DNA from: a virus | Strand: one strand, 5' to 3' | Virus record (IMG/VR): IMGVR_UViG_3300036761_003779 | Coordinates: 1-64,000 of that record | DNA length: 64,000 bases | Shown here: positions 9,090 to 34,788 of the stretch, in pieces | Layout: every line of letters begins with the position of its first letter | Numbering within the stretch: the first letter of the stretch is position 1 | The notes under the pieces: generated by a model | What the model was told of the DNA's origin: nothing | Database searches by the model: none | The model's input: only the letters and a program-made list of their open reading frames with translations | Program-made: the position numbers and the translations under genes

Positions 9090-9787
9090 GCGGAGGTCTC
9101 CCTCTGCGCAAACGGCGTGGAGAGGATGTTCTCCGGCCGCTGCTTGCTCGTCCGCGTGAAGACTCGCCGCTCCGCCTCCGGGAGGTCCTCCAGCCGGAGG
9201 GTCCCCGCCCGGAGCGCCACCTCGCTCCGGAGCAGCTGCGCAATGACGAAGGCGTCCGCGACGTTCCCGCCGGCGCCCGTGGTCTTCCCGAACTCGAGGA
9301 AGTTGAGGTCCCACCTGTCCCGGCATGCGATGACCACCTCCGCCTTCTCCGCGTTCCCGTTCCCCGTGGCGAACATCTTGACCGCCTGCACGTCGTAGAC
9401 CCTGTAGGGGATCCCCCGGGCCCAGAGGAGGAGGCGGACGACCGCTCCGACCTCCCCGAGGTGATGGGAGTAGGCCATCCGCGCCAGGGCGTAGTCCTCG
9501 AGCGCGGCGTGCGCCGGTGTCCACTCGCTCAGGAAGCCGCCCAGCTGAACGCGAAGGTCCTCGAGCCGCGCCGCGCGCCCGGCCTCGTCCCCCGCCCGCA
9601 CCTCCCGGGGAGGGAGCGCCCCGCGCTCGCGGAGCGCCTTGGCGCCCGACTTCGTGTCCGCCCAGAAGAGGACGCCCAGGAGCTTCCCCGCCGCGTCCAG
9701 CGCGACCGCCGCCGTCCCGGTGGCGGACTGGTCGATCCCGATCACCGCGGCCGCCTCCGCCGCCTTGTACAGCCGCTTCTCAGCCAC
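9086..9787 (-). CDS. RuvC-like Holliday junction resolvase
   Basis: IGIDQSATGTA, ALEDY, VKMFATGNGNAEKAEV, NVADAF. Confidence 0.85.
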   Translation of the reverse strand: MAEKRLYKAAEAAAVIGIDQSATGTAAVALDAAGKLLGVLFWADTKSGAKALRERGALPPREVRAGDEAGRAARLEDLRVQLGGFLSEWTPAHAALEDYALARMAYSHHLGEVGAVVRLLLWARGIPYRVYDVQAVKMFATGNGNAEKAEVVIACRDRWDLNFLEFGKTTGAGGNVADAFVIAQLLRSEVALRAGTLRLEDLPEAERRVFTRTSKQRPENILSTPFAQRETSA

Positions 9788-10625
9788 GCTCCCTCCTGTC
9801 CCGGAGTAGCCGCGATGCGGCCGCCCGGACCTGCGCCGGGTCCCGGTCCACGTACACGCACCGGCGCCCCGCCCGGTCCGCCGCCACGAGCGTGGTCCCG
9901 GTCCCCCCGAAGACGTCGAGGACCAGGCCGCCCTCCGGGCAGCCGGCCCGGACCAGCGCCTCAACGAGGTCCAGGGGCTTCTGCGCGCGGTTCAGGTCCA
10001 CGCCGTCCCCCCGCTTCAGCCGCTCCGACTGGTTGACGACCCCGCGCTCGACCCAGTTCGGGCAAACCGCCGGGACCCACTCCCCGCCCGGGTGGGCCAC
10101 GAAGTAGTTGCGCTGCCGCGGCATCGCGTCGAGGTCGAAGAAGGCGCCCGGCGCCTGCCCCACGGCTAGGAACTCGCAGGCGGAGACGAAGGTCCGCTTC
10201 CGGACGGAGCAGGCCGGATTCGGCTTGCACCAGACGAAGGAGGCCCGGACGTCGAAGGCCGCCTCCCGGAGCCACCGCTTGATCAGGGAGAGCCACCAGT
10301 CCGAGGTCCAGATCCAGGCGTTCCCCGCCGGGAGGTCCCGCGCCGCCCCGACCAGGGAGCGGAGGAGCGCCTCCAGCTCCGGCTCCGGGAGCCGGTCCCA
10401 GGACTCGTTCAGGGCATGGTCCTTGTGCCCGGTCATGTTCCCGATGACCGCGTCGGACGAGACCGCGTAGGGCAGATCCGTGAGGAGGAGCGCCGGCGGC
10501 CCCTCCACGCGGGCGAGGACCTCCCGGAGGAAGTCCGCGTCCGCCGCGTCCCCGCAGGCCACCACGTGCCCCCGCGCGTCCTCCCAGATAAAGCCGGGGA
10601 CGATCTCGACCGCGAGCCGCTTCAC
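9780..10625 (-). CDS. N6-adenine/N4-cytosine DNA methyltransferase (beta class)
   Basis: Catalytic TDLPY precedes QKP..L...VLDVFGGTGTT (SAM-binding). Confidence 0.88.
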   Translation of the reverse strand: MKRLAVEIVPGFIWEDARGHVVACGDAADADFLREVLARVEGPPALLLTDLPYAVSSDAVIGNMTGHKDHALNESWDRLPEPELEALLRSLVGAARDLPAGNAWIWTSDWWLSLIKRWLREAAFDVRASFVWCKPNPACSVRKRTFVSACEFLAVGQAPGAFFDLDAMPRQRNYFVAHPGGEWVPAVCPNWVERGVVNQSERLKRGDGVDLNRAQKPLDLVEALVRAGCPEGGLVLDVFGGTGTTLVAADRAGRRCVYVDRDPAQVRAAASRLLRDRRERG

Positions 10626-18466: not shown

Positions 18467-21337
18467 TCATCTGGCAGTAGACCGGATGCGTGGGCTCCGG
18501 CGCAGCTCCTCGATGTCCTCCGGCCGGAGGAGGGCGCGCGCGTTCTCCCGGATCTGGGCCACCGCCTTGGCGACCCGCTTCGGGTCGAGGAGCCATCGCT
18601 GGTACCGCTCGACCAGCTCCCCCCGCCGGCGCCGCTTCTCGACGAACCACGCCTGCCAGTCCCGCTCCGGGAAGCAGACCTCCAGGATCCGGAGGCTGGC
18701 CGGATAGATCACGCGGTCCCAGTAGTATTCCGCCGCGTACCGGATGCCGCCGGCCGCCTCCTCGAAGTCCTCCCGGGTGACCCCCTGGAGGGTCGGCTTC
18801 GTCCCGGTCACCACGTACTCGATCTTCATCCCCACGTAGTATTCCCGCCCGTGCTCCCGGATCTCGTCCGCCAGCTTCACGTGGAGGGTCTTCGTCTTGT
18901 AGCGTTCCGGGTCCTTCGAGATCCCCTTCGAGATGCAGACCTCGTCCGCGCTCAGCCGCCCCTCCGCGCAGCGGGTGAACTCCGGGGCAACGATGTCCCG
19001 CTCGATCTCATCCCCGCTCAGCCGGTCCATGAGGATGGCGTCGAGGACCCGCTGCTGGAGCCGGCGCGTCATCCCGGAGAAGTCCGACCGCATGACCTCG
19101 AGCCCCTTCACCTCCACGTGGTCCGTGATCGCGCCCTTGTGCGCCAGCATGCGGCCCGCGTACCTCTTCTTGCAGACGAAGAAGATCCGGTCGAAGACGT
19201 CCTCGAACTCCAGCTCGACCATGTTCCACTTCAGGTTGCAGCCGCACCCCTCCAGGATCCGGAAGTAGCGGTCCTGGCAGTAGGCGGCGAACCGCTTGCC
19301 GATGGCGTCCAGCTCCGCGGCCCGCGCCTCCTCCGTCTCCCACTCCCGGTCGGAGGGCGCAAGCTGGATGTAGATGGAGTCCGTGTCCCCGTAAAGCGGC
19401 GAAAAGCCGTTCTCCTTGGCGTACTCCGCCGTCTTGAGGATGAAGGACCGCCCGGAGAGGGTGATGGACTCCGCCAGCTCCGTGTCGTAGTAGCGGCTCC
19501 GCGGGTTCCCCATGTCCCCGTAGAAGCTCAGGCCCAGCCGCTTGAAGGAATAGGCCAGGCGGTAGTACAGGAGGTACATGTCGTCCTGGGTGGTCCCGGT
19601 CACCTTCAGCCGCTCGTGCTGGAGGTCCGTGTACTTCTTCCGCCGCTCCAGCGTCTTGACGAACATCTGGGAGATGTACCCCTCCCGGTCGAGCCGGAAG
19701 GTCGAGCCGCCCTTCGTCTCCCCGGAGTCCACCACGACCTCCGGGCAGCGGCACAGCTCCCCGGGCGCGTAGCTCCCCCGCTCCTCCTCCTTGACGATGG
19801 TCTCCGGGCTGATGTTGAAGGCCCGGACCATCGACGGGTACAGGCTCTTGAAGTCGAAGGCCGCCACGTTCCGGTGCATCCCGACGACGGGTGGGAAGAC
19901 GTAGGCGCCCTCGTAGGGCTCCGGGCGGCCCGGGCTCCAGTACCGGGTGATGAAGTGGTGCCCCTCCTTGAAGCCCTTCTTCAGGAGGAGCTGGTCGATC
20001 TTGGTCGAGATGTTCCAGTCGTTCGGGAAGCCGTTGGCCACGCGGCAGAAGATCTGCTCGATGGCCACGAAGCCCGTGAACGCCTCCAGCTTCCGGAGGA
20101 TCTTGGCGTCGTAGCGGTTGTACTCCTCGAGCAGCTCCGGGTCGTGCCGGTAGAGGTTGATGAACTTCGGGACCACCCCCGGGTGGCGCTCCCGAAAGGG
20201 CTTGCGCCAGTCGATCTTCCGCATCTTGAGGACCTTGTCCCCAATGGAGCCCAGCCCGAAGGACACCGCGTCCGCGCCGGCCCGGATGTAGTGGCGCTTG
20301 AAGACCGGGAGCGGGTCCGCGAAGAGGTGCTTCCGCCAGTCGATCTGGATCCGGTGTTTCCGCATCCGGTAGATGATGACCGGGAAGTCGAACCCAAAGC
20401 CGTTCCAGGCGGCGATGACGTCGTACTTCTCCACGCAGAGCCGCTTCCACTCGAGGAGCATCTCCCGCTCCGCCTCGTCCGTCTCCGCCCGGAGGCGGAG
20501 GAAGCCGCAGTCCTCCGGGTCCTGCTCGAAGTGGTCCCCCTCCCAGGCGATGGACAGGATCCGGTTCTGCTCCTTCCGGTCGAAGCCGCCCACGGAGTCG
20601 TCCGTCTCGATGTCGAAGAAGCCCATGCGGTAGTGCGCCTGGACGTGGAGGTCGTAGTCCGTCAGGAACCGCTGCTTGGGGGTGAGGTCCGCCTCCAGCG
20701 GCTCGAGCCCCTTCCGGCGGCACCACTCGACGGTCTCATGAATAGGCGTCCACCGCTCCCGGTCCTGCGGGAAGCGGACGGCGTGCGGCCGCTCCCCCAG
20801 GACGTAGGGCGCCATCCACATCGCCCCGGCCTCCGGGTCCCCCACCCGGCGGAAGCAGGCGTCGTGGTCGATCTTGGGGTACTTGTAGGGCACGTACACG
20901 CGGACGAAGCGGTCCGGGAAGTCCGGGTCCGGGACCACCCGCTTGGCGTGGTTCCGGCAGAGCCAGGCCCACTTCTCCGCCGGCACGCGCTCGTAGTCCG
21001 CCCGGCTCAGGAAGAAGTACCACTCGAACGGGTGGACCTCCTTGACCCGCTTCCCCGTCGCCGGGTCCCGGGACATGAGGACGATGTCCTCCCCCTCCGA
21101 CCAGCCGTGGTAATACTCCCGGTCGTTGAAGAAGCGGGCGTCCTTCATCTCGTCGAAGTCCGCGGCGTCCCGGAGGTCCACCACGTCCCGCTTGTCGTGG
21201 ACCTGCTCCGCGTCGATCTGTTGGGCGTAGAAGGCCCGCTGCGCGACCTTCTTCTTCCCGTCGAAGTCGCCGACCAGCCCCTGGCTGTCCGCGTCGCTCA
21301 GGAGCGAAGCGCCCGCCCGGAAAGCGCCGCCCGCCAC
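18467..21337 (-). CDS. Family B DNA polymerase
   Basis: Exonuclease FFDIET, AWNGFGFDFP, YNRYD; polymerase FDFKSLYPS, K..GLSFYG, YGDTDS, KKRY, KGLE; start position approximate. Confidence 0.95.
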   Translation of the reverse strand: MAGGAFRAGASLLSDADSQGLVGDFDGKKKVAQRAFYAQQIDAEQVHDKRDVVDLRDAADFDEMKDARFFNDREYYHGWSEGEDIVLMSRDPATGKRVKEVHPFEWYFFLSRADYERVPAEKWAWLCRNHAKRVVPDPDFPDRFVRVYVPYKYPKIDHDACFRRVGDPEAGAMWMAPYVLGERPHAVRFPQDRERWTPIHETVEWCRRKGLEPLEADLTPKQRFLTDYDLHVQAHYRMGFFDIETDDSVGGFDRKEQNRILSIAWEGDHFEQDPEDCGFLRLRAETDEAEREMLLEWKRLCVEKYDVIAAWNGFGFDFPVIIYRMRKHRIQIDWRKHLFADPLPVFKRHYIRAGADAVSFGLGSIGDKVLKMRKIDWRKPFRERHPGVVPKFINLYRHDPELLEEYNRYDAKILRKLEAFTGFVAIEQIFCRVANGFPNDWNISTKIDQLLLKKGFKEGHHFITRYWSPGRPEPYEGAYVFPPVVGMHRNVAAFDFKSLYPSMVRAFNISPETIVKEEERGSYAPGELCRCPEVVVDSGETKGGSTFRLDREGYISQMFVKTLERRKKYTDLQHERLKVTGTTQDDMYLLYYRLAYSFKRLGLSFYGDMGNPRSRYYDTELAESITLSGRSFILKTAEYAKENGFSPLYGDTDSIYIQLAPSDREWETEEARAAELDAIGKRFAAYCQDRYFRILEGCGCNLKWNMVELEFEDVFDRIFFVCKKRYAGRMLAHKGAITDHVEVKGLEVMRSDFSGMTRRLQQRVLDAILMDRLSGDEIERDIVAPEFTRCAEGRLSADEVCISKGISKDPERYKTKTLHVKLADEIREHGREYYVGMKIEYVVTGTKPTLQGVTREDFEEAAGGIRYAAEYYWDRVIYPASLRILEVCFPERDWQAWFVEKRRRRGELVERYQRWLLDPKRVAKAVAQIRENARALLRPEDIEELRRSPRIRSTAR

Positions 21338-21888
21338 CGCGCCGCCTCCGCCTCCCGCGCCGTCCACCGCCGGAGAGTCGCCACCGGGTGCCGGAGGAGG
21401 ACCGCCTCCGCCAGCGTCCCGTCCACCCTCCTCTTCGCCCCGAAGCTGCTTAACCCGAGGTGGGCGCCAGCCGCCCGTCCGAGGACCAGGATGATCCTCA
21501 GGCTCGTCAAGGAGGTCATCTCCAAGGTCAGGTGGGTCCTCGCGCATGCGTCAACCTCCGCCGGAGTCGGGCCCCGGTTCCCTGGAGTAGCGCATTTGAG
21601 CGCATTCGTGGAGTAGACCGCGGAGAGGTCCAGGCCGGAGAGCCGCGCCAGCTCCCAGAAGGCCCGCTCCGCGCCCTGAAGTTTTGGTGGAACTTTCCCA
21701 TACCGCTGGAACACCGCCAGGTATGGGATGACAAAGGCGCCCTTCACGCCGTCCGCCGCCCGGACCGCCGGGTTGATCCCGACCACCGCGACCTCCGCGT
21801 CCCCCGGCCCGAACCCCACGCATCGCGGGAGGCCGGAGGAACCCAGCGGGCACGCCCGGCAGTCCGCGGTCTCCCGCCGGAGGATCAC
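21298..21888 (-). CDS. Uracil-DNA glycosylase superfamily protein (family 4-like, Fe-S Cys)
   Basis: CRACPL, VVGINP, YSTNALKC..NRGP..E...C, LVLGR, LRHP. Confidence 0.85.
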   Translation of the reverse strand: MILRRETADCRACPLGSSGLPRCVGFGPGDAEVAVVGINPAVRAADGVKGAFVIPYLAVFQRYGKVPPKLQGAERAFWELARLSGLDLSAVYSTNALKCATPGNRGPTPAEVDACARTHLTLEMTSLTSLRIILVLGRAAGAHLGLSSFGAKRRVDGTLAEAVLLRHPVATLRRWTAREAEAARWRAALSGRALRS

Positions 21889-22418
21889 GGCTCCTCGAGG
21901 TGCAGGCTCCCGATGAGGAGGGTCAGGCGGGTCTCCCGGTAGGTGACCGCCTCTGACATCCCCACGACGCTCCACGCCACCCAGAGGTGGTTCAGGACGT
22001 CCAGCGGGAGGAGCGGGACCGCCCGCTCGCTCCGCATGAACCCCAGGACGTGGAGGGCGTCCTTGCGGCCGCGGAGGACCTGGATCGCGGACGGGCACTT
22101 CGGGGGCGGGAGGACGGAGACCATCCGCCGGGAGGTCCGCTCCTCCCCCGGGAAGCGCAGGCGGAGGGCGCGCGAGTGCGCCCGGTAGTCCTCCGCCTCC
22201 GCGTCCCAGTGCTCGAGGAGCGCCGGGTCCATCTTCCTCACCAGCCCCCGCGCCGCGTCCTCCCCGTCCAGGAGCCGCTCCGTCGAGAGCCGGAGGACCG
22301 CGCCGGCCGCCTCCCGCCAGTTCCGCCCGTCGACGCGGACCAGCGCCCCCGTCTGCCGGACCTCCTCGACCGCGCGCTCGACCGCGCGCTCGATCTGCTC
22401 CGCCAGCTCCGCGCTCAT
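21885..22418 (-). CDS. Short thymidylate-synthase-fold protein, dCMP-modifying type
   Basis: SRR..PPKCPSAIQVL..FMRS..D..IGSLHL aligns by eye to T4 dCMP hydroxymethylase motifs. Confidence 0.7.
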   Translation of the reverse strand: MSAELAEQIERAVERAVEEVRQTGALVRVDGRNWREAAGAVLRLSTERLLDGEDAARGLVRKMDPALLEHWDAEAEDYRAHSRALRLRFPGEERTSRRMVSVLPPPKCPSAIQVLRGRKDALHVLGFMRSERAVPLLPLDVLNHLWVAWSVVGMSEAVTYRETRLTLLIGSLHLEEP

Positions 22419-23428
22419 CTCTGCCGCCCCTCCCAGCCGGGGAACGCCTCCGCCAGCTTGTCCGCAAAGCGCCACTCGTGGTTCGCCTCGACGCCCCCGC
22501 CCTCCCGGATGTCCATCCACTCGAACTTGAGCGCCGTTCGGAGGTCCGGCTCCGTCATCCTCCCGACGCCCAGGACCTCCTGGAGCCGGTCGAGGTCCTC
22601 CGGCGCGTGGACAAAGTCCCCCTTGTAGTCGAGGTCGGCGCGCCACTCCGGGTCGAGGTCCACGCCCGTCACCTCCTCCACCATCCGCACGATCTCCCCG
22701 TACTGGAGCCAGAGCCCGGAGGCCACCGGGATCTTCCCGGAGAGCCGCTTCTCCGCCGCGTGGGTGATGACCTCCGCGATGAACTCGTGCGGCGTCACCT
22801 CCTTCACCTTCAGCGGGTCGAGCGGGAGGAACGGCCGGCGGTCGTAGACCCCGGCCGCGCACTTGAGGAGGTCCGCCACGCAGGAGTTCCCGTCCCGCAT
22901 CCCGCCGAAGCCAAAGGACGGGTAGACCTGGAGGAGGTGGTCCTGGACCCCACGCTCCCGGAAGGTCGACTCCATCAGGAGGCGCCCGGCCAGCTTGGTC
23001 ATCCCGTAGCGGGTGAGCGGGTTCGCCGGCGTCCGGTTCACCTCGATGGGGCGGTCCAGCCCGTAGGCGGCCGGCTCCATCTCCGCGGCGGTGGCAAGTA
23101 GGACCGTGTAGACCCCGCGCCGGGAGAGGACGTCCGCCAGCGCCTGGACCGCGGACACGTTGCAGCTCCAGGCGTCCTCCGCGTGCGCCTCGCAGCGGGT
23201 CGTCCCCACGAGCGCGCCGGAGTGGAAGAAGGCGTCCGGCCGCTCCGCGTCGAGCCAGGCCAGGTAGACCGGGCTCCGGAAGTCCGGCTCCTCCGCCCCG
23301 GTGGACGGGCTGACCCAGCGCGGGACCTCCTGCGCCGGCGGGGAGACCCGGACGTGCCCCGCCGTCTTCAGGTACTCGTCCAGGACGGACGCCAGCATCC
23401 CGCTGTCACCAGTGAGTGCGTACCTCAT
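22415..23428 (-). CDS. NAD(P)-dependent NDP-sugar epimerase/reductase (extended SDR, RmlD-like)
   Basis: LTGDSGMLA, HSGA, NV, YGMTK catalytic motif. Confidence 0.85.
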   Translation of the reverse strand: MRYALTGDSGMLASVLDEYLKTAGHVRVSPPAQEVPRWVSPSTGAEEPDFRSPVYLAWLDAERPDAFFHSGALVGTTRCEAHAEDAWSCNVSAVQALADVLSRRGVYTVLLATAAEMEPAAYGLDRPIEVNRTPANPLTRYGMTKLAGRLLMESTFRERGVQDHLLQVYPSFGFGGMRDGNSCVADLLKCAAGVYDRRPFLPLDPLKVKEVTPHEFIAEVITHAAEKRLSGKIPVASGLWLQYGEIVRMVEEVTGVDLDPEWRADLDYKGDFVHAPEDLDRLQEVLGVGRMTEPDLRTALKFEWMDIREGGGVEANHEWRFADKLAEAFPGWEGRQR

Positions 23429-23924
23429 GTATGACCTCCTCCTCGCTTCGGTTCGTGTCGATGACGTGGACCTCCCCGCCCAGGTCCCGGTACAGCCGCG
23501 CCGCCTCCCGGAAGGCGTCCAGCTGCTCCCGGAGCCGCCGCGGGGGGCGTCCGCCGCGCCGCGTCGCGCGCGCCTCGAGGACCTCCGCCGGCGCCTCGAG
23601 GACAAAGACCCGGGCGTCCCCCGCCGCCCGGGCCACCTCCCGGACAAAGTCCCAGGGGACCGGGCGGCCGCGGAGCCCGTCGTACACCACGTTCGAGAGG
23701 ACCCAGCGGTCCACGATCGCGCGGAGGAACGGGGCGAGGGCGGCCACCGTCAGCGCGTGTTGCGCGCCGTGGACCTGGAGGTCCCGAGACGTCAGCGGGT
23801 GGAGCCAGGTCAGCTCCCCGTGCCGGCCCGGATCATCGAAGACCGGGAGGTCGTAGAGCGAGGCCAGCGACTTAGCCAGCGTGGACTTGCCCACGCAATT
23901 GGCGCCCTCGAGGACGCGGATCAC
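23406..23924 (-). CDS. dNMP (thymidylate-kinase-like) kinase
   Basis: LEGANCVGKST P-loop, IVDRW..S..VY. Confidence 0.85.
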   Translation of the reverse strand: MIRVLEGANCVGKSTLAKSLASLYDLPVFDDPGRHGELTWLHPLTSRDLQVHGAQHALTVAALAPFLRAIVDRWVLSNVVYDGLRGRPVPWDFVREVARAAGDARVFVLEAPAEVLEARATRRGGRPPRRLREQLDAFREAARLYRDLGGEVHVIDTNRSEEEVIHEVRTHW

Positions 23925-25087
23925 GGCCGCCTCGACGCGGACCAGTCCGCGGAGAGGTCCCGCGGCTCCCGCTCCTCCCCGGACGGTCCGGCGGAGAAGC
24001 CGCCCGTGGGGTCCGCGGCGTCCCCGGCCATCACGGTGAAGAGGTCCGCCTCCTCCGCGCTCCCCGGCTCGTAGCCGAAGAGGAAGCGATCCCGGGCGGA
24101 AAGCGGCCAGCCCTCCGGGCGGTCCTCCCCGGCGTCCGGGATCCGGACGCCCAGCTGCGCGGCGATGGTCGCCCGGTCCGAGCAGCTCTCGTTGAAGTCC
24201 GCCACGCTGTAGTCCAGGTCCGGCGCCCCCGGCGCGGAGCGGACCCGGTTCCGGCCGCAGCTCCGGAACAGGCACCCGAACGCCTCCGACATCGTGTGCG
24301 CCTTGTGATAGCCGCACGCCCCGGAGAAGTCGCAGCCCGGGCGGAGGTGCATCCCGAGGAGCGGGAAGGCGTCCCACTTCAGGAGCCGGTCCCGGAGGAG
24401 CCAGGCCACCGCCACGGTGTCCTCCGCCTCGGAGAAGGTCATCCGCCGGGCGCACATCCCCTTCAGCGCCATGAAGTTGATGCTCAGGGAGAAGCGGTGG
24501 ACCACGGAGATCGGGAGCGCCGTCCGCGCCTCCTGCCAGCTCCCCTTCCCCGCCTCCACGATCTCCCGGTAGACGTCCTTGGCGTGACGCGCCAGGGAGA
24601 CCAGGCCCGCGAGCTTCCGCTCGTCCCGGAAGGACGCCTCGTGGAAGCGGAACGGGATGTCCAGGTGGTTATTGTCCCGCGTCCCCATCGACGCGAAGAC
24701 CACGCCGAGCCGCGCCCGAGCGATCTGCTCGAAGGACCACCGGGAGAGGTTCTCCACGGAGAAGGTGAACTGGGGCGCCTCCATCGCCAGGGGGAGCGCC
24801 TGACCGCGGAGGACCGCGCGGACGACCGCCTCCCGCGCCTCCGGGGAGGCGTCCTCCCAGCGCTGCCGCATCGAGGTCCGCCAGGTCCCCCAGGTCGACG
24901 TGGCCATGCAGTACATGGCCCGGTAGGGGTTCCGCGAGGCGTCGAGGAGGTCCACGCGGATCCCCTCCACGCCCCGGTAGAAGCGGGTGTCGAACTCCGG
25001 GGAGGCGGAGGGCGCCGTCCCCATCAGCTCCCGGAGCTTCCGCAACTCCTCCACGCGCTCCGCGCCCGTCTTGACATCCGTGCTCAT
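23921..25087 (-). CDS. Divergent ThyX-like flavin-dependent enzyme
   Basis: E..QFTF.V..LSR...QIARAR, QEARTALP, N..AL...CARR; the canonical RHRx7S motif is altered. Confidence 0.75.
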   Translation of the reverse strand: MSTDVKTGAERVEELRKLRELMGTAPSASPEFDTRFYRGVEGIRVDLLDASRNPYRAMYCMATSTWGTWRTSMRQRWEDASPEAREAVVRAVLRGQALPLAMEAPQFTFSVENLSRWSFEQIARARLGVVFASMGTRDNNHLDIPFRFHEASFRDERKLAGLVSLARHAKDVYREIVEAGKGSWQEARTALPISVVHRFSLSINFMALKGMCARRMTFSEAEDTVAVAWLLRDRLLKWDAFPLLGMHLRPGCDFSGACGYHKAHTMSEAFGCLFRSCGRNRVRSAPGAPDLDYSVADFNESCSDRATIAAQLGVRIPDAGEDRPEGWPLSARDRFLFGYEPGSAEEADLFTVMAGDAADPTGGFSAGPSGEEREPRDLSADWSASRRP

Positions 25088-26064
25088 CTCGTCCTCCTCT
25101 CCCGGGCGATCCGGAGGACCGCCTCAAGCGCCCGCGCCGGGTCCGCCGCGCGGTGGGCCCCGGCGACCTCTCGCCCCGCGTTCAGCTCGTTCTCGACCAG
25201 GACCACGGGCACGCCCGCGGAGACCACCTCCGCCGCAATGACCGGGTCGTCCTCCAGCATCGCCAGGAGCCCGGGGAACCGCTCCACGATCCGCCGGTGC
25301 TTCTCCCGGTCGAAGAGGACCGCCTCGTGCCGGAGCCCGTTGGCGTCGAGCCACTCCAGGGTGTCCGCGTAGATCCGGCTGAAGCGCCAGTAAGGCCGCG
25401 CGGAGAGGAGGACCACGTTCAGCCCCTCCGCCCGGAGCCCGTCGAGGAGCGCCTTCGCGCCCGCCCGGACGCGCTGCTCCCGCTTCGCGCCGCTCTCCCG
25501 GTAGCGGTCCTTGAGCTCAAGGTAGCGCCGCGCCCCCAGCTCCCCCCGGAGCGCGGAGAGGAAGGGCACGTCCCCGCGCCGCTCGAAGGAGAACTCCGGA
25601 ACGGTCTGGCAGACCCACTCGCAGAACACGGCCGGGTAGTCCGAGAGGACCCCGTCGATGTCGACGGCCACGACCCGCTCCGACCCGGGCGGGATGGCCC
25701 GGAGGCGCTGCTCCATCCCGTAGCGGTACTCGACCACCTGGGTCTTCCGCTCGAACTCCTCCTCGATCTCCTCCGCGGAGAAGTCCCAGACGTTGGCCAG
25801 CCCGAGGAGGAACTTGAGGCAGTCGATCCACTCCTCCAGCACGTTCGTCCGGATCACCGGGTCCGGGCTCTGGCGGTGCATCTTCCAGGAGGTCTCCCCC
25901 AGCAGCTCGTGAAGCTCCCCCTCCACGTGGAGGACGAACTCCTTGGACCAGTGGATCCGGTCCGTCGGGGAGAGCGCCCGGACGTCCCCCAGGCCGCGGT
26001 CTGCGAAGAAGCGCCGGTTGAACTCCATCTGCCTCGCCAGGAGGTCCCTGAACGCCTCAGACAT
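25084..26064 (-). CDS. MazG/dimeric dUTPase-dCTPase domain fused to a HAD nucleotidase
   Basis: E..ELL..SWK.H..EEWID..KF; C-terminal VDIDGVL, SARP, EDD. Confidence 0.85.
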   Translation of the reverse strand: MSEAFRDLLARQMEFNRRFFADRGLGDVRALSPTDRIHWSKEFVLHVEGELHELLGETSWKMHRQSPDPVIRTNVLEEWIDCLKFLLGLANVWDFSAEEIEEEFERKTQVVEYRYGMEQRLRAIPPGSERVVAVDIDGVLSDYPAVFCEWVCQTVPEFSFERRGDVPFLSALRGELGARRYLELKDRYRESGAKREQRVRAGAKALLDGLRAEGLNVVLLSARPYWRFSRIYADTLEWLDANGLRHEAVLFDREKHRRIVERFPGLLAMLEDDPVIAAEVVSAGVPVVLVENELNAGREVAGAHRAADPARALEAVLRIARERRTR

Positions 26065-26959
26065 GGGACACCAGGTCCCGGAGCGCCTCCTCCGCCACGT
26101 CGTGGAGCCGGATCCGGTGGTCCCAGCGGGCCATCCTCCCCATGTGCCGGACCAGCCCGCCGGACTCCTCCGCCGGCCGCGGCTCCCCGAGGACCTGGAG
26201 GAGGGCGTCCCGGACGACCCAGGAGCCGTTCACCACCTCGGGGAACCAGGGCGGGGTGTCCCCGTTGAACTCGTAGGCGAAGGTCCCGCCGGGGAGGATC
26301 GTGACCCGGTCAAACGGGATGCGCGGGTCCGTCACGTAGACCCAGCGGAGGCCGGCGTCCCGCGCCACCCGGAGGGCGTCCGCCCAGGCCATCCCCTCCG
26401 CAAAGGACTTCCTCCCGATGCACCAGGTCCCCTCCCGCCGGAGGAGCCCGTCGAAGGCCGGCGCCGGGAGGGTGTTCACCAGCAGGCCGGTCTCGTACAG
26501 CTCGTCCCCCGCCTCGACGCGCACGCGCCCCGTGGCGGGCTCGGGTCGGACGAACGAGACCTTACCCAGCCAGACGCGCACGCGCGCCTCCAGGGCTGCG
26601 CAGAGGGCATCGACGGTGGTACGGAAGCACGTCAGGAGCCCGGGCGCCCCGGAGGAGACCGCGGAGGAGGGCGCCGCCGCCGGCCGCCCGCTCCGGCGGA
26701 GGTACTCCGCCCGCTCACCCGGCGTGACGTCCTGCGTCACCCCCCGGGGACCCCAGAAGCCGAACCGGACCTCCTCCGTGTCCGCCGGGAGGCCGAGGTC
26801 CCGGAGGACCGCGGCCATGCCCGGGGAGGACCAGAGGTGGCTCGGGGCCAGGCGCCGCGTCTCCGCGTCCCCGCCCGGCCGCTCCCCCAGGCAGGGCGCC
26901 CGGAGGAGGTGGGCGCAGAGGAGGCCGACCGGCCCCGCCCCAATCACGAGAGCGTCCAT
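26057..26959 (-). CDS. FAD-dependent oxidoreductase, UDP-galactopyranose-mutase/HemY-like
   Basis: VIGAGPVGL, LVNTLP, WVYV.DP.IPF.RVT, GRMARWDH. Confidence 0.7.
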   Translation of the reverse strand: MDALVIGAGPVGLLCAHLLRAPCLGERPGGDAETRRLAPSHLWSSPGMAAVLRDLGLPADTEEVRFGFWGPRGVTQDVTPGERAEYLRRSGRPAAAPSSAVSSGAPGLLTCFRTTVDALCAALEARVRVWLGKVSFVRPEPATGRVRVEAGDELYETGLLVNTLPAPAFDGLLRREGTWCIGRKSFAEGMAWADALRVARDAGLRWVYVTDPRIPFDRVTILPGGTFAYEFNGDTPPWFPEVVNGSWVVRDALLQVLGEPRPAEESGGLVRHMGRMARWDHRIRLHDVAEEALRDLVSHV

Positions 26960-28452: not shown

Positions 28453-29175
28453 TCAAACCGTTATCTTTTCGCTCGTCGCAAGCACGCTCCGGACCGACGA
28501 CCCGTACCAGGCCGCGCCCGCCTTCGGGGGGACCCCGCGGGCGTTCAGCATGTCCGCGATCTTGTGGGAGGAGATCCCGTCCGCCCGCGCCGCCCGCATC
28601 TCCTCGAGGACCGCCGCCTCCGCCGGGTCCGGGAGCAGCCGGTCCCCCTCCCGCCGGAAGCCGAAGGGCGTCCGCCCGAAGACCCGGCCGGTCGCCCGGC
28701 AGCGCGCCGTCGCGTCCCGGCAGCGGGCGGAGATCATCTCCCGCTCCATCTCCGCCATGGCGGCGAGGATGGTCATCGTGAACCGCCCGTGCGGCGTCGA
28801 CGTGTCCATCTGCTCCCGGACGGAGACGAAGCCGCGCCCGGCCCGGGCCAGGTCGGAGACCACGGTCAGGAAGTCGAGGGTGGAGCGGCTCAGCCGGTCG
28901 ATGGCGTAGACGATCAGGGCGTCCGCCTCCCCATCCAGGACCGCCTCGAGCGCCCGGCGGAGCGCCGGCCGCTCCAGGTTCTTCCCGGAGAGCCCGGCGT
29001 CCACCTCGACGCGGAGGAGGTCCGCGTCCGTCAGCGCCGCGTAGGCGCGGAGCTTCTCCTGCTGATCCCCGAGAGAGACCCCGCCGCGCGCCTGCTCCTC
29101 CGTCGACACCCGGGCGTAGCCGATCAGGCGGGTCCGCCCCTCCGGGCGGAGCATCTTCGTCCGTGGCCGCGCCAT
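28453..29175 (-). CDS. Serine recombinase (resolvase domain plus short recombinase domain)
   Basis: IGYARVSTEEQ, DAGLSG...RPAL, DRLSR, E.ER..IS.R, PFGF. Confidence 0.92.
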   Translation of the reverse strand: MARPRTKMLRPEGRTRLIGYARVSTEEQARGGVSLGDQQEKLRAYAALTDADLLRVEVDAGLSGKNLERPALRRALEAVLDGEADALIVYAIDRLSRSTLDFLTVVSDLARAGRGFVSVREQMDTSTPHGRFTMTILAAMAEMEREMISARCRDATARCRATGRVFGRTPFGFRREGDRLLPDPAEAAVLEEMRAARADGISSHKIADMLNARGVPPKAGAAWYGSSVRSVLATSEKITV

Positions 29176-31340: not shown

Positions 31341-32470
31341 CTCACCCTCCTGCTCCGGAACCGGACCGCCAGCCGCTTCCGCTCCTCCGGCGGCCGGAGC
31401 GCCTCGAGGAGCGCCCCCTCGGGGGCGTCCCCCGGGTCCGTCCCCGCCGGGAGCGGCCGGAACTCGACCCGGGCCCAGGGGGACAGGTGCTCCTCTATGG
31501 TACTCCATAGAGTTTTACCACCCTCATCCCCGTCCGCCACGTGGATGACGACCGGGACCCCCCGGAGGCGCCGCGCCTGCTTGGGGTAGATCCGGCCGCC
31601 GAGGACCGCGACAACGTTCCCCGGCGAGACCGGGGAAACGCCCGGCTCCCGGAGGAGGAGCGCCCGGACCCGCTCCGCGTCGAAGATGCCCTCGACCAGC
31701 GCCGCCGGCCGGGAGGCGTCGATCCCGTCCGGCGCCCAGAGGACCCCGGCGTCCTTGACGAAGGGGAGCCCGGGGCAGTAGCGCCCCTTCAGCTTGGACG
31801 GAACTTTGAAGATCGAGCGGACGTACCAGTTGACCGCGCGCCCGCCCTCCCGGATGGGGAACAGGATCCCCGGGACCGTCCGGGCGAGGCAGGCCACGTC
31901 CCCCGCGGCGGAGACCGCCCGGAGGTCCAGCTCCGCGGCCCGGTCCGCGGAGATGCCCCGCCGCTCCAGGTAGGCGAGGAACTCCGGGCGCGCCCCCGCG
32001 ACCGGCCGGTTTGGCGGCCAGGTCAGCTCGCGCCAGTCCGGCGGCCGGACCGCCGCCGCGCGCCGGGAAAGCGCCTCCTCGAGCGCGGCCTCCCCGCTCC
32101 CGTCCTCCCGGACGTACTCCGCCCGGAGCCAGGCAAGCGCGGCCGCGCGCTCCTCCTCCCGCGGCCCGCGGTCCCAGACCTCGCCCCGGCAGCGGGCCAC
32201 GAGATCCGCGAAGTCGAGCCCCTTCAGCGGCCCGCCCGGGTGGCTCCAGCAGTTGAACCAGCCGAGCCGCGCGCGCCCCTCCCCGTCCGTGACGTCCTCC
32301 ACGCAGACGTGGAAGGAGGGGTTGCTCTCCCGGTGCTCCGGGTCCGGGCACTCGAGGTAGGCGTCCGACCCGTTCCGGTAGGCGATGACCATGCCAAGGT
32401 CCGCCAGGACCTCCTCCAGGTCGAGCCGGCGGAGGAGCCGCTGCGTCCGCTGGATGTCCCGCTGGCTCAC
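31337..32470 (-). CDS. DNA primase (CHC2-like Zn finger plus Toprim)
   Basis: CP...H.E.NPSF..FNCWSH; YL..RGI; LVEGIFDA; DGDEGG. Confidence 0.88.
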   Translation of the reverse strand: MSQRDIQRTQRLLRRLDLEEVLADLGMVIAYRNGSDAYLECPDPEHRESNPSFHVCVEDVTDGEGRARLGWFNCWSHPGGPLKGLDFADLVARCRGEVWDRGPREEERAAALAWLRAEYVREDGSGEAALEEALSRRAAAVRPPDWRELTWPPNRPVAGARPEFLAYLERRGISADRAAELDLRAVSAAGDVACLARTVPGILFPIREGGRAVNWYVRSIFKVPSKLKGRYCPGLPFVKDAGVLWAPDGIDASRPAALVEGIFDAERVRALLLREPGVSPVSPGNVVAVLGGRIYPKQARRLRGVPVVIHVADGDEGGKTLWSTIEEHLSPWARVEFRPLPAGTDPGDAPEGALLEALRPPEERKRLAVRFRSRRVR

Positions 32471-34788
32471 TTGCGCCCGTCGAAGTCGGTCGTGTGCGCG
32501 CCGACGCGGCAGATCTTAGGGTCGAAGAGGAAGCCCGCCGTCAGGTTCTGCGGCCCGCGCCGCTGCTTGGCGACCTTGACCTCCATCACGTCCTCGTCCG
32601 CGCTCTCCGGGTCGTAGTATTTCGAGCGGTGGAGGAGGAGGATCAGGTCCCCCACCTCCTCGTAGCCGCCGGAGTTCTTCAGCTCGTCTAGCCGCGGCCG
32701 CGGGTTCCGGGTCCGCTTGATGCGCCGGATCTGCTGGACCACGACTGCGCAGAACTTCCGCCGCTTCCCGAGCTTCTTGAGGCGCCGGAGGGCGTCCGTC
32801 ACCTCCGCGGGTTTGAGCTCACCCTGGAGGAGGTACTCAAAGAGGTCCAGGATGACGACGTCGAAGTCGTCCTCCTCCACGCGCATCTCCAGGTCGTCGA
32901 GGGAGGAGACCTCGTCGTCGAAGGTCACCAGCCCCGAGTCGAGGATCGCCCGGGCGGACCGCTCCATCCGGAAGACCTCCTCGTCCGTCAGCTGGTCCGG
33001 GGTCTTCACCAGCTTCTCCGCCTCCACCTTCGCGTTCGCGCAGAGCATCTGGTCGACGACGGAGGCGGTCCCCGCCTCCACCGGGCAGTTCAGGACGCGC
33101 CGGCCGGCGAGGACCTGCCGGAGCGTCAGATTGGAGCAGAAGGTGCTGTTATGAGTGGGGATCATCCCTTCCCCCGCAAGGTACACCCCATCCGGAGCGT
33201 CTACCTCGATGCAGCGCACCGGGACGCTCTCCACTGGCTCGATCATCTTTACGAAGCGCCGCTGTCTGCGCGGGGAGCGGTACGACTCGAAGTGGTTCTG
33301 CTTCCGCCCCAACTTGAAGAGGTCCCCGCGATCCAGCGAGAACCACATCCGGTAAGAAACGCTCGTCTCCGGGCATCTCCCCTTCACGGCTCGCTCCCCG
33401 GTTCCAACCCGGTAACCGAGGGAGCGAACTAACTGTAGGGCGTCAAGGAAGAGGGCGCGGTTACAGAGGTCCAGTCGAACGGTCCGCCCGTAGTTCTCAA
33501 CGTACCCGTCGGTGTCTAGGAGCCCCGCCAGAAGCTCCCTCCGCTGCAGCTCTGACGCCCTGAGGTAGAGCTGCGGGATGTGTTTGTTCCCCAGGAGCCC
33601 CGCCTCACGCAGCTTCTTCTTCAGCCCAATGACGTTATACGCTCTGAAATTTCTCCTGCTCCAGCTGCTAACCCTCACCTCATACCCGTCCAGCTCCACC
33701 CGCCTGGGGATCTCCGGATCCTCGGAACCAAACCGCCCATCCGCGGCGCCCCCGTCCCCGAGCCATACCCCAAGGGTGTACGGTTCGATCGGAAGCATGA
33801 CTTCCGGCAGGTCCAGCGGCGGGAAAGGTTCCACGGAGTGGTTTAGTCGATCGTCTTGGTTCACCCGGAGCGTCCGCGCAAGCTCTACCGTCGTCCGCAC
33901 CGATCCACTCCCCCCTCCCTTCCGCTCCCGGTCGGTTCGGGTGAGCCAGAGGTGCTCGGCGTCCGCCACGAGCGAGGACCCGTCCGAGAAGACCACCCGG
34001 AAGCATGGCCTCCGAAGGAGGACCTCCCCGACCTTACGCACGGAGCGCCGCCTACCATCCGAACCAAAGACGGTCTCGCCGACGGAGATGGAACCCATCT
34101 CCACCCAACCGGCGGGCGTCGGGATCTTGGTGTCCAGCGCCAGCGCCTTGCCCATCCCCGGGCGCGCCGCCAGGACGACGAGGTCCCCGGGCTTGAGGCC
34201 CGCGTACAGGTGCTCGTCCAGGCCCGTGAAGCGGAGCGGGACGAACCGCGGTGACTTCCCGGACCGGGACTCCTCGAGGTCCGCCATCCACTCCGCGTGG
34301 AGCGCCCTCCCCTTCTTGACCCGCGTCGCGGAGGAGCCGGCGTCCCGGAGCTTCTTGACGATGGAGAGGGCGTGTCCCTGCGCCTCCTCCAGCCCGGCGT
34401 TCGGGTCGTCCATCGAGGCGTAGAGGGAGGCGAAGTCCTCCCCGGCGGAGAACTTGGCCGCGTCGCGGCGGAGCTGGTCCAGGTGAATCGACAGGTTCTC
34501 CGGCGGGAGCGGCTCGAACTGCTCCTCGAGCTTCCGGAGGTAGGCGAGGTCGACCTCCCCGGCCCCCAGCTGAACAACGCTGTCCGCCGCGTAGGAGGCG
34601 CCCCGCTTCCGGAGTTCCCGGAGCGCGGCCGCGATGGCGCGGTGCCGCGGGTGGTTGAACAGCTCCGGCCGGAGGGCGCCCGCCTCCCGCTGGAAGGCCG
34701 CCGGGTCCCGGACGAGGGCGCCGAGGACCACCTGCTCGTTGTCCACGTTCACGTCGATTAGGAGCGTCCCGGAGTCCCGCTTGCTCAC
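32467..34788 (-). CDS. dnaB: DnaB-like replicative helicase containing an intein
   Basis: EQVVLGAL; LAARPGMGK|intein|STF; VILD; QQIRR; PRLDELKNSG..EE.GD..LLLHR; KQRRG. Confidence 0.9.
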   Translation of the reverse strand: MSKRDSGTLLIDVNVDNEQVVLGALVRDPAAFQREAGALRPELFNHPRHRAIAAALRELRKRGASYAADSVVQLGAGEVDLAYLRKLEEQFEPLPPENLSIHLDQLRRDAAKFSAGEDFASLYASMDDPNAGLEEAQGHALSIVKKLRDAGSSATRVKKGRALHAEWMADLEESRSGKSPRFVPLRFTGLDEHLYAGLKPGDLVVLAARPGMGKALALDTKIPTPAGWVEMGSISVGETVFGSDGRRRSVRKVGEVLLRRPCFRVVFSDGSSLVADAEHLWLTRTDRERKGGGSGSVRTTVELARTLRVNQDDRLNHSVEPFPPLDLPEVMLPIEPYTLGVWLGDGGAADGRFGSEDPEIPRRVELDGYEVRVSSWSRRNFRAYNVIGLKKKLREAGLLGNKHIPQLYLRASELQRRELLAGLLDTDGYVENYGRTVRLDLCNRALFLDALQLVRSLGYRVGTGERAVKGRCPETSVSYRMWFSLDRGDLFKLGRKQNHFESYRSPRRQRRFVKMIEPVESVPVRCIEVDAPDGVYLAGEGMIPTHNSTFCSNLTLRQVLAGRRVLNCPVEAGTASVVDQMLCANAKVEAEKLVKTPDQLTDEEVFRMERSARAILDSGLVTFDDEVSSLDDLEMRVEEDDFDVVILDLFEYLLQGELKPAEVTDALRRLKKLGKRRKFCAVVVQQIRRIKRTRNPRPRLDELKNSGGYEEVGDLILLLHRSKYYDPESADEDVMEVKVAKQRRGPQNLTAGFLFDPKICRVGAHTTDFDGRK
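33148..34146 (-). mobile_element. Class 3 intein with LAGLIDADG endonuclease in the DnaB P-loop (333 aa)
   Basis: Starts with Ala (ALALDT); HLW / VRCI / PTHN WCT triad; LGVWLGDG and LAGLLDTDG; +1 Ser. Confidence 0.9.

Follow-up and report, generated by a model that had tools for sequence, protein, structure and literature searches.

Introduction

Enzymes of the thymidylate synthase (TS) superfamily start most of the known pyrimidine hypermodifications of phage DNA, those leading to 5hmC, to 5hmU and, since 2025-2026, to 5hoC. TS mutagenesis has shown that D169/D221 is required for folate-dependent catalysis, and the meaning of an aspartate at the position of ThyA N177 for cytosine specificity was reportedly worked out by Graves et al. 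in 1992. Such an Asp marks cytosine-nucleotide specificity (PMC13326640), and it is found together with the TS fold in the flavin- and O2-dependent 5-hydroxy-dCMP (5hodCMP) synthases (PDB 9iqu, 9iqc), for which D169N is diagnostic (PMC13326640). These enzymes include RB69 gp48, DLP3 gp80, the RL38J1 enzyme and HY126 AfhB, and the verified ones form the TS branch that has Asn in place of D169; in RL38J1 a Tmk-like kinase and a phage UGM act alongside the synthase (PMC13326640).

Here we describe a much smaller TS-fold protein, mini-TS (P0001), encoded within a 64,000-nucleotide stretch of a virus genome (the window; IMG/VR record IMGVR_UViG_3300036761_003779, positions 1 to 64,000). Its probable role is to provide an altered cytosine for phage DNA, since the elements for gripping and attacking a cytosine nucleotide are kept and those that hold the folate are missing.

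A short coding gene coupled to its neighbours

The mini-TS gene occupies positions 21885-22418 on the minus strand, stop codon included, and encodes 177 amino acids. Its GC content at codon positions 1, 2 and 3 is 0.78, 0.47 and 0.99, a pattern that is absent from the in-frame stretch 5' of the ATG (0.98, 0.73 and 0.41), and the open reading frame is therefore a real, coding gene. The start overlaps the stop codon of the SDR gene upstream (ATGA), the stop overlaps the start of the downstream uracil-DNA glycosylase (UDG) gene (GTGA), and the gene is translationally coupled to both neighbours. In the translation, C108 lies within PPPKCPSAIQVL, residues 128-140 read MRSERAVPLLPLD and the C-terminus is GSLHLEEP; the codons for C108, M128, R129, S130, R132 and D140 were verified by hand in the DNA.

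Direct family searches of the protein against Pfam, PHROGs and NCBIfam gave no match, and it did not match PF00303 (Thymidylat_synt) at E ≤ 1. We aligned a family of 27 sequences, with identities down to ~20%, in which five distant members do match PF00303 over profile positions 88-223, the best at 22.2 bits (E = 8.6e-5), below the gathering cut-off of 24.3 bits. A truncated or frameshifted full-length TS could be ruled out, as all 27 relatives end 4-44 residues past the active-site His and none has the small domain.

Predicted fold and sequence homology

The AlphaFold2 model of mini-TS has a pLDDT of 94.3 and a pTM of 0.90. Foldseek returned 395 matches at E ≤ 1e-3, the top matches listed being TS or T4 dCMP hydroxymethylase (dCH) chains with a probability of 1.0, and VIA-align found 396 chains at Z ≥ 8, with a sharp drop to one further chain at Z 5-8. 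The matches comprise only TS-superfamily structures, with Z of 11.4-12.9 across 146-158 aligned residues, and residues 10-177 of the model align with residues 1-211 of E. coli TS. A structure search of the ESM Atlas again retrieved TS clusters; the feature-based search was uninformative, with scores of 0.78-0.82. The model thus has a TS-superfamily fold with a resemblance far beyond chance, as the original prediction had expected when it proposed superposition on TS and dCH as the check. The CMP 5-hydroxymethylase MilA (Z 12.9), L. casei TS (12.3), AfhB (9iqu, 12.2) and the complex with dCMP and FAD (9iqc, 12.0) differ by less than 1 in Z, so that the MilA, TS, dCH and AfhB matches are to be read as ties.

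At the level of sequence, two profiles were compared, one of the close family (A1) and one of the wider family (A2). Only A2 reached T4 dCH among the PDB sequences (E = 1.2e-6), scoring 31 bits vs 18 bits for AfhB-type hydroxylases; a single-sequence phmmer search and A1 returned only noise. Aligned with hhalign, A2 gave a probability of 94.8% with T4 gp42 (E = 5e-8), 90.4% with RB69 gp48 and 56% with E. coli ThyA, and A1 alone gave nothing significant against gp42 or gp48. T4 dCH being the best sequence-level match, the figures argue for a miniature folate-dependent dCMP hydroxymethylase of the T4 gp42 type with 5-hydroxymethyl-dCMP as its product, a reading that we consider doubtful on the grounds given below.

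The nucleotide-activating residues are kept

Eight residues are invariant in all 27 family members: E36, R97, C108, R129, S130, D140, S171 and H173. C108 (codon at 22095-22097, minus strand, as are all codons given here) is the predicted catalytic nucleophile, corresponding to ThyA C146 and T4 C148, and D140 sits at the cytosine-specifying position (ThyA N177, T4 D179), where the dCMP branch has Asp; retention of both had been proposed from the DNA alone and extends to the whole family. The T4 gp42 motifs adduced in support of that proposal, C148-TNTVQYL, MRSNDVVFGFRND179 and GSLHVY, are also correct. The substrate-loop motif M128-R129-S130-E131-R132-...-L136-...-P138-L139-D140 (21999-22037) was placed by alignment to T4 gp42 and ThyA, with R129 and S130 corresponding to ThyA R166 and S167. 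Towards the C-terminus, G170-S171-L172-H173 (21900-21911) corresponds to GSLH in T4 and GDTH in ThyA, with H173 equivalent to H207 and only four residues remaining after it. M128 and S171 are common to T4 gp42 and RB69 gp48 but not to ThyA, and E36 (22311-22313) has a Glu as its counterpart in T4 gp42 (TIEIIG) and in RB69 gp48, the ThyA residue being Ser28.

S96-R97-R98 (22125-22133) is the equivalent of the S125-R126-R127 phosphate clamp that is donated by the partner subunit in ThyA; the R98 position is Arg in 22 of the 27 members, Lys in three and Gln in two. Y78 (22185-22187), in the long helix 65-91, is Tyr in 19/27 and Phe in 7/27 and may correspond to ThyA Y94.

MilA as the top VIA match (20% identity, Z 12.9) and the replacement by E175 of ThyA Y209, which reads the 3'-OH together with H207, would both fit a different substrate, that is CMP as for MilA, dCDP/dCTP or a uracil nucleotide. 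We regard this as very improbable, given that the top match is tied with the others, that the invariant Asp at the N177 position argues against uracil and that PolB, UDG, the Tmk-like kinase and dUTPase_2 point to a setting of DNA replication and dNMP metabolism and not to a nucleoside-antibiotic cluster.

The folate-contacting elements are lost

At 177 residues mini-TS is shorter than ThyA (264), T4 gp42 (246) and RB69 gp48 (238), in line with the minimal architecture first ascribed to it. Compared with E. coli ThyA, ~30 residues of the small domain, the region bearing W80 and W83 and the last ~53 residues are absent, the latter because the protein stops four residues past H173; in the alignment the His is followed by ~13 residues in RB69 gp48, 28 in T4 gp42 and 57 in ThyA. 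Within the substrate loop, R132 aligns with D169 of E. coli ThyA and D171 of T4, and L136 with G173 and G175, respectively, so the change of RSxD to RSER and the loss of the Gly were correctly read from the DNA. The Y209 position is E175 (Phe in RB69 gp48), the phosphate ligand R21 is replaced by V29, and the L143 position is P105, three residues before the Cys, where the acidic residue is absent; the P105/L143 equivalence is judged from sequence only because the mini-TS loop is nine residues shorter than that of ThyA.

Across the 27 members the D169 position is Arg in 11, Leu in four, Cys in two, Glu in two, Asp in six, Ser in one and Asn in one (P0027), and none has Gly at the G173 position, where RB69 gp48 has Val. 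In the alignment, loss of D169 is specific to the subfamily of mini-TS (Arg, Leu or Cys) and that of G173 is family-wide. Six members of the same minimal architecture retain D169 together with Y209, so that folate use is compatible with a small size. The claim that the folate-contacting elements are gone therefore holds for mini-TS itself (D169, G173, the W80/W83 region and the lid) but does not extend to the whole family with respect to D169. R132 in place of Asp, L136 in place of Gly and Pro in place of the acidic L143-position residue set mini-TS apart from the folate-dependent dCMP hydroxymethylases, D140 in place of Asn177 and the missing C-terminal lid set it apart from ThyA, and Arg instead of Asn at the D169 position sets it apart from the 5hodCMP synthases.

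In a folate-dependent hydroxymethylase of this size, methylene-tetrahydrofolate (CH2-THF) would be stacked on the cytosine and, because there is no C-terminal lid, water would attack the exocyclic methylene. C-terminal deletions of TS have shown that a lid-less active site favours hydroxymethylation over methylation, and the open active site predicted here would do the same; PDB 1tda is among the VIA matches. The GSLH motif, which matches T4 exactly, the hydrophobic stretch L136-L137-P138-L139 in place of ThyA L172-F176, and the six members with D169 and Y209 are all consistent with folate use, and CH2-THF is presumably present in the infected cell, as the phage encodes a canonical ThyX. Against these stand the Arg, Leu or Cys that the subfamily has for the D169/D221 needed in folate-dependent catalysis, the absent G173, the missing C-terminus and W80/W83-bearing region, and the Pro at the L143 position, which is typically acidic in hydroxymethylases. 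Non-folate chemistry is plausible for mini-TS, and the original suggestion of a non-folate co-substrate has a published precedent in the flavin/O2-dependent 5hodCMP synthases; R132 instead of Asn, P105, the slightly closer match to T4 dCH and the minimal members that keep D169 speak against it.

The loss of the R21 ligand, D169, Y209 and the lid could also point to a non-catalytic or regulatory dCMP binder whose Cys is no longer catalytic, for example a scaffold for dNTP synthesis or a dCMP sensor, and T4 gp42 is itself part of the dNTP-synthetase complex. This seems quite unlikely, since the Cys and the nucleotide-binding set are invariant in 27/27 sequences down to ~20% identity, which is unexpected for a pseudoenzyme, and a kinase is fused to the protein in relatives.

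The mini-TS subfamily and its relatives

The subfamily is small, comprising 13 of the 27 sequences, is of high GC content and has Arg, Leu or Cys at the D169 position. The variation at this position among close relatives means that no specific cofactor contact is evident at residue 132. The subfamily has invariant residues of its own, E53, D77, H81 and P109; E74, D77 and H81 are spaced i, i+3, i+7 along one helix, and E/Q131 also belongs to its invariant polar set. P0024, a fusion of a Tmk-like kinase to mini-TS, and P0041 have the same stripped-down architecture and the same invariant residues, and the kinase domain of P0024 is homologous to the kinase encoded two genes from mini-TS.

Searches of P0024, P0015 and P0020 against viral contigs gave no match, and relatives were found on a single 1.5-kb contig among metagenome contigs and on none among genome contigs; one locus (L001) was the sole informative relative locus obtained from contig searches. 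Among 50,697 phage records, tblastn retrieved nothing related to mini-TS, the flavoprotein or the SDR.

A conserved module adjoining the DNA polymerase

The mini-TS gene belongs to a module of eight genes, all on the minus strand, that overlap by 4-8 nt. The first (26057-26959) encodes a 300-residue FAD-type Rossmann flavoprotein with a UGM/protoporphyrinogen-oxidase (PPO)/amine-oxidase fold according to its AlphaFold2 model (pLDDT 86) and Foldseek; by VIA, UGM (Z 18.9) and PPO (Z 18.2) are matched. It is followed by a protein with a dUTPase_2 domain (all-alpha, MazG-type NTP pyrophosphatase) and a weakly HAD-like C-terminal half (25084-26064), a divergent ThyX-like protein of 388 residues with a Cys-rich C-terminal extension (23921-25087; 42-44 bits vs Thy1), a Tmk-like (d)NMP kinase (23406-23924), and an extended SDR of the NDP-sugar 4-epimerase/RmlD-like type (22415-23398), in which YxxxK is present and to which MoeE5 comes closest among solved structures (E = 1.3e-6). 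After mini-TS come the family-4 UDG with a GTG start (21298-21888) and a family B DNA polymerase (PolB; 18467-21547, exact start uncertain). The same eight-gene order is found in a second complete phage, the two mini-TS proteins being 46% identical vs 74% for the ThyX-like proteins.

A search of the whole genome with PF00303 gave no match. A canonical ThyX (genome positions 100545-101321) and a dCMP deaminase, encoded elsewhere in the genome, serve dTMP synthesis, and the canonical ThyX rules out the module gene as the sole ThyX-family gene of this phage. The second phage has the divergent ThyX-like gene only, and the module gene may have neofunctionalised. The genome, rated 100% complete, gave no match to the glycosyltransferase families PF00535, PF00534, PF13692, PF13641, PF09198 and PF13439; phage glycosyltransferases are often invisible to Pfam, and a divergent one may be encoded beyond the reach of this six-family search.

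The module also raises the possibility of a two-protein catalyst, in which mini-TS would bind dCMP and activate C5 and a partner would deliver the group, a flavin-N5 adduct or a sugar-derived electrophile, yielding an undescribed substituent. That partner could be the divergent ThyX-like flavoprotein, the SDR or the UGM/PPO-like flavoprotein. Most of the cofactor half of the TS active site has gone, its folate contacts being replaced by the subfamily's own invariant polar set (E53, D77, H81, E/Q131); the coupling to the SDR, the gene order fixed in two phages, the ThyX-like protein being more conserved than mini-TS, and the lack of a glycosyltransferase hit in the six families point in the same direction. 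All of the evidence for a partner is nevertheless genomic context, we know of no TS-fold enzyme that needs one, the ThyX-like gene, as the sole ThyX-family gene there, may simply be the dTMP synthase of the second phage, and a glycosyltransferase could easily have been missed by Pfam. We therefore consider a partner-dependent enzyme improbable. Equally improbable, in our estimate, is a subfamily of TS-fold C5 activators that has neither the folate nor the known flavin signature and uses a new co-substrate or a module partner to install an undescribed C5 substituent; E53, E74, D77, H81 and E131 would then form a new site, and the substituent could be a group derived from a sugar and attached directly. 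For the NDP-sugar co-substrate of the original prediction the support is contextual, from the adjoining epimerase-like SDR and UGM/PPO-like flavoprotein.

Discussion

We propose that mini-TS is an enzyme that modifies dCMP at C5 within a DNA-modification pathway, with a probability of roughly 0.75. Pre-replicative action on the free nucleotide, with modification of dCMP at C5, is well supported; the whole proposal including hydroxylation to 5-hydroxy-dCMP is tentative, at somewhat less than even odds. In the proposed mechanism R129, S130 and H173 would bind dCMP, together with R97' and R98' from the partner subunit of a TS-type dimer, while D140 would read the N3/N4 face of the cytosine. Addition of Cys108 to C6 would render C5 nucleophilic, and C5 would then attack an electrophile other than CH2-THF, most likely, by analogy with AfhB and RB69 gp48, the distal oxygen of a reduced-flavin hydroperoxide, to give 5-hydroxy-dCMP once H5 is removed by a base, for which Y78 is a candidate, and Cys108 is eliminated. 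The dUTPase_2-type pyrophosphatase could supply dNMP and deplete the normal dNTP, the Tmk-like kinase would phosphorylate the product and the adjacent PolB would incorporate it, and the new hydroxyl may receive a sugar from the SDR and the UGM-like flavoprotein via a putative transferase.

Mini-TS shows how far the TS fold can shrink with every nucleotide-activating residue kept, to 177 residues without the lid, the small domain and the folate Asp. At the D169 position its subfamily carries neither the Asp of the folate state nor the Asn of the flavin state, which makes the subfamily a natural test of the D169 rule for predicting the products of TS homologues. The eight-gene module that adjoins the polymerase, with two flavoproteins, a sugar-nucleotide-type SDR and no recognisable glycosyltransferase in the genome, offers a starting point for finding a cytosine modification that may be new, in high-GC phages not yet cultured; if the product is plain 5hmdCMP or 5hodCMP, mini-TS is an ordinary member, of unusually small size, of a known type of pathway.

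In comparison with known systems, mini-TS keeps the central sheet, the SRR clamp, Cys146, R166/S167, P175 and H207 of E. coli and L. casei ThyA, whereas N177 (Asp instead), D169, G173, Y209, R21, the W80/W83 region and residues 212-264 are missing. MilA (PDB 5b6e) is similar in its TS fold over 154 aligned residues and its Asp at the N177 position, but unlike mini-TS it has 318 residues, is folate-dependent and ribonucleotide-specific, and is encoded in an antibiotic gene cluster. T4 gp42 (PDB 1b5d, 1b49, 6l18) shares the TS fold, the Cys in C-x3-(V/I)Q, M-R-S, the Asp at the N177 position, GSLH and the Glu at the E36 position, and its gene also lies near a family B DNA polymerase, its product acting alongside a dNMP kinase and an enzyme of the dCTPase type. 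It differs in its length of 246 residues and in keeping D171, G175, Y218, the E60 helix, the small domain and a C-terminal tail of ~28 residues following the His, where mini-TS has R132, L136, E175 and, for the acidic residue at the L143 position of T4, a Pro. The 5hodCMP synthases, which have 230-240 residues, differ in their Asn at D169, the L143E signature, the E58-type helix and the Y94-G motif, and, unlike in their systems, no DNA glycosyltransferase was detected with the six Pfam families in the mini-TS genome. They resemble mini-TS in the TS fold, the Cys and the cytosine Asp, in the loss of D169 and G173, in a replaced Y209 and in a short C-terminus, and their pathways include a dedicated dNMP kinase and NDP-sugar genes, much as the mini-TS module has a kinase, an SDR and a UGM/PPO-like flavoprotein.

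Results

A small homologue of thymidylate synthase

The minus-strand ORF at 21885-22418 translates into a 177-residue relative of thymidylate synthase (TS), P0001 or the mini-TS, and this translation contains all the motifs quoted in the original prediction (PPPKC(108)PSAIQVL, MRSERAVPLLPLD(140) and GSLH(173)LEEP). The ORF is a genuine gene. Its GC content at codon positions 1/2/3 is 0.78/0.47/0.99, against 0.98/0.73/0.41, the wrong periodicity, in the in-frame stretch 5' of its ATG. The ATG follows a ribosome-binding site of the GGGAGG type and shares an ATGA overlap with the stop codon of the gene upstream; at the other end, the mini-TS stop codon and the GTG start of the next gene downstream, UDG, overlap as GTGA.

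P0001 itself gave zero matches in Pfam, PHROGs and NCBIfam. Nine relatives with 45-88% identity, all metagenomic and without names, came from a word-indexed search among 5.8 billion proteins, and alignment A1 was built on them. When 1.84 billion cluster representatives were searched exhaustively with a profile, no more than 19 proteins reached E ≤ 1e-3, and the sequences of both searches were combined into alignment A2 (27 sequences). Five distant members match PF00303 in Pfam below threshold (best E = 8.6e-5), over profile positions 88-223, the catalytic core.

The AlphaFold2 model based on A2 has a pLDDT of 94.3 and a pTM of 0.90. Among the top matches that Foldseek listed from the PDB, every one is either a thymidylate synthase or T4 dCMP hydroxymethylase (dCH), with probability 1.0 and TM by query of 0.52-0.67. 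VIA-align of the model returned MilA (5b6e; Z 12.9, 154 aa, rmsd 3.1), L. casei TS (Z 12.3), the dCMP hydroxylase AfhB of phage HY126 (9iqu; Z 12.2) and 9iqc with dCMP and FAD bound (Z 12.0); Z was at least 8 in 396 chains, with nearly none between 5 and 8. Matches in BFVD are phage TS or dCH models. At the sequence level, the A2 profile matched T4 dCH (E = 1.2e-6) and AfhB (E = 0.015) among PDB sequences, and hhalign gave 94.8% for T4 gp42, 90.4% for RB69 gp48 and 56% for E. coli ThyA. Together, the structure and sequence matches establish the TS fold, as had been predicted, and TS homology. The family is closer to the dCMP-acting branch than to ThyA.

Residues kept and lost

Residue equivalences were taken from an alignment of P0001 with T4 gp42, RB69 gp48 and E. 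coli ThyA. S96-R97-R98 corresponds to the phosphate clamp S125-R126-R127 of ThyA, C108 to the nucleophile C146, R129-S130 to R166-S167, P138 to P175 and H173 to H207. M128 and S171 occupy the positions of Q165 and D205, where T4 and RB69 likewise have Met and Ser, and D140 lies at the position of N177 (D179 in T4). E36, R97, C108, R129, S130, D140, S171 and H173 are invariant in 27/27 sequences of A2, and the Asp at the N177 position upholds a cytosine nucleotide as the substrate type.

Elsewhere the site differs from that of ThyA: P109 is found at H147, E131 at C168, R132 at D169 (D171 in T4, Asn in RB69), L136 at G173 (Val in RB69) and E175 at Y209, and V29 replaces the R21 ligand. Model residues 10-177 match ThyA 1-211, therefore the last ~53 residues of ThyA, which include the C-terminal lid closing over the folate, are missing from P0001. 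Between the N-terminal hairpin and SRR the model has only two helices (52-63 and 65-91), where ThyA has ~30 extra residues including the W80/W83 region, and the loop leading to the Cys is shortened by 9 residues. The replacement of D169 and G173, with the missing lid and W80/W83 region, bears out the proposed loss of folate elements.

The D169 position carries R in 11 of the 27 sequences, D in six, L in four, C and E in two each, and S and N in one each; the G173 position is Gly in 0/27, and Tyr at the Y209 position is seen only in sequences whose D169 position holds D or E. On these column counts the family splits into two branches, a low-GC branch that keeps the folate-like D169 and Y209, and a high-GC branch, including P0001, in which both are gone and E53, D77, H81, P109 and E/Q131 are invariant. 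The Y78 position is Y or F in 26/27; Y78 and E74 sit on a long helix and may be candidates for the Y94-type base. We found no TS homologue of such small size described in the literature.

A conserved gene module

The source record is a 105,878-bp IMG/VR virus rated 100% complete, with 70% GC and nearly all genes on the minus strand; the window is its first 64 kb. The mini-TS gene belongs to a chain of overlapping minus-strand genes: a Rossmann flavoprotein (26057-26959), a dUTPase_2 (MazG-type) domain with a HAD-like tail (25084-26064), a divergent ThyX-like protein of 388 aa (23921-25087; 42-44 bits against Thy1), a Tmk-like kinase (23406-23924), an extended SDR (22415-23398), the mini-TS, a family-4 UDG (21298-21888) and a family B DNA polymerase (18467-21547). 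The UDG sits directly between the mini-TS and the polymerase. The longest polymerase ORF overlaps the 3' end of the UDG gene by ~250 nt, thus the real start is probably internal, near 21337.

The module order is identical at locus L001 of a second complete phage (IMGVR_UViG_3300017963_000014). The mini-TS encoded there shares only 46% identity with P0001; the ThyX-like protein, at 74%, is far more conserved. In both phages a serine recombinase with Resolvase and Recombinase domains, at 28453-29175 (-) in the window and L001:3242-3991 (+), lies between a UvrD-like helicase and the module. P0024 is a family member in which a Tmk-like kinase is fused to a mini-TS; its kinase domain and the window kinase are homologous (29% identity over 113 aa, E = 4e-6), which provides a Rosetta-stone link between kinase and mini-TS.

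The 300-aa flavoprotein (AlphaFold2 pLDDT 86) has a GxGxxG motif and no Pfam family, and VIA-align placed UDP-galactopyranose mutase (UGM; Z 18.9) level with protoporphyrinogen oxidase (Z 18.2). Typical members of this fold have 360-500 aa, which makes 300 aa unusually short. The search returned 10 homologues besides the window's own, every one an unnamed metagenomic protein; contigs encoding flavoprotein homologues agree in length with contigs of mini-TS homologues (73,667, 101,817 and 19,888 nt). The SDR is translationally coupled to the mini-TS; its first glycine motif is unusual (TGDSGMLAS), its YxxxK is intact, and its closest solved relative is MoeE5, a UDP-glucuronate 4-epimerase (E = 1.3e-6). 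A shorter SDR-like ORF of 216 aa (3895-4545, minus strand) has an Epimerase match to the N-terminal Rossmann part only (profile positions 1-57). Mini-TS, flavoprotein and SDR have no relative in any cultured phage among 50,697 records, and six Pfam families of glycosyltransferases had zero matches anywhere in the genome.

The ThyX-like protein has a Cys-rich C-terminal extension and, aligned with the canonical ThyX of the genome, reads RFH...RDERK in place of RHR...QESQR; the RARLG...GTRD earlier taken as the altered motif aligns one segment before it. The canonical ThyX (Thy1 E = 7.6e-48, 163 bits, RHR...ESQRF) is encoded near the far genome end, at locus L006:7545-8321 (-) (genome 100545-101321), beside a dCMP deaminase at L006:8544-9125 (-) (genome 101544-102125), so ordinary dTMP synthesis from dCMP by way of dUMP is covered outside the module. 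The second phage has the divergent ThyX-like gene only, and a Pfam profile search found no PF00303 gene in the whole window-phage genome.

Other minus-strand genes include an OGG-like helix-hairpin-helix protein at L006:10161-10745 (genome 103161-103745), besides the UDG a second DNA glycosylase, and an N6/N4 DNA methyltransferase at 9780-10625 (PF01555, E = 3e-15), with which the DNA may be methylated after replication as well. Homing-endonuclease/LAGLIDADG matches at residues 610-666 of a 974-aa DnaB-type helicase ORF (32467-35391) suggest an intein.

Discussion

The invariant Cys, Arg/Ser, Asp and His, the kinase linkage and the location of the gene within a chain of nucleotide-metabolism genes that ends with the polymerase together make a pre-replicative enzyme likely, one that activates C5 of dCMP through addition of the Cys at C6. 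Lee et al. (NAR 2026, PMC13326640) report that dCMP is turned into 5-hydroxy-dCMP by TS homologues of RB69 (gp48), DLP3 (gp80), RL38J1 and others, which carry flavin in loosely bound form and take the oxygen from O2; the HY126 enzyme with flavin was solved by He et al. (PDB 9iqu, 9iqc), as cited there. According to Lee et al., use of dCMP is indicated by Asp at N177 and a non-methyl product by an acidic residue at L143, and Asn at D169 is diagnostic of hydroxylation (9/9 tested homologues with Asn were active). With this precedent, non-folate chemistry of the mini-TS is plausible, and we tentatively favour hydroxylation, the whole statement having a probability of roughly 40%.

Arg, Leu or Cys instead of Asn at the D169 position, Pro at L143, the marginally closer match to T4 dCH and the small architecture shared with the D169-bearing sister branch would suit a miniature hydroxymethylase, which we consider unlikely, or a new, partner-dependent chemistry, less probable still. 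The loss of D169, G173, Y209, the lid and the W80/W83 region, together with the sugar-nucleotide-type neighbours, points away from CH2-THF.

The mini-TS would represent the smallest class of TS-fold dCMP modifier, its subfamily having neither Asp nor Asn at the cofactor-deciding position and being embedded in a conserved, uncharacterised module. Known 5-hydroxy-dCMP synthases partner with a dedicated dNMP kinase, NDP-sugar genes, which include UGM in RL38J1, and DNA glycosyltransferases (PMC13326640). P0001 resembles these flavin hydroxylases in all of the losses and in the type of its neighbours, but differs from them in the Arg, Leu or Cys that its subfamily carries in place of the Asn.
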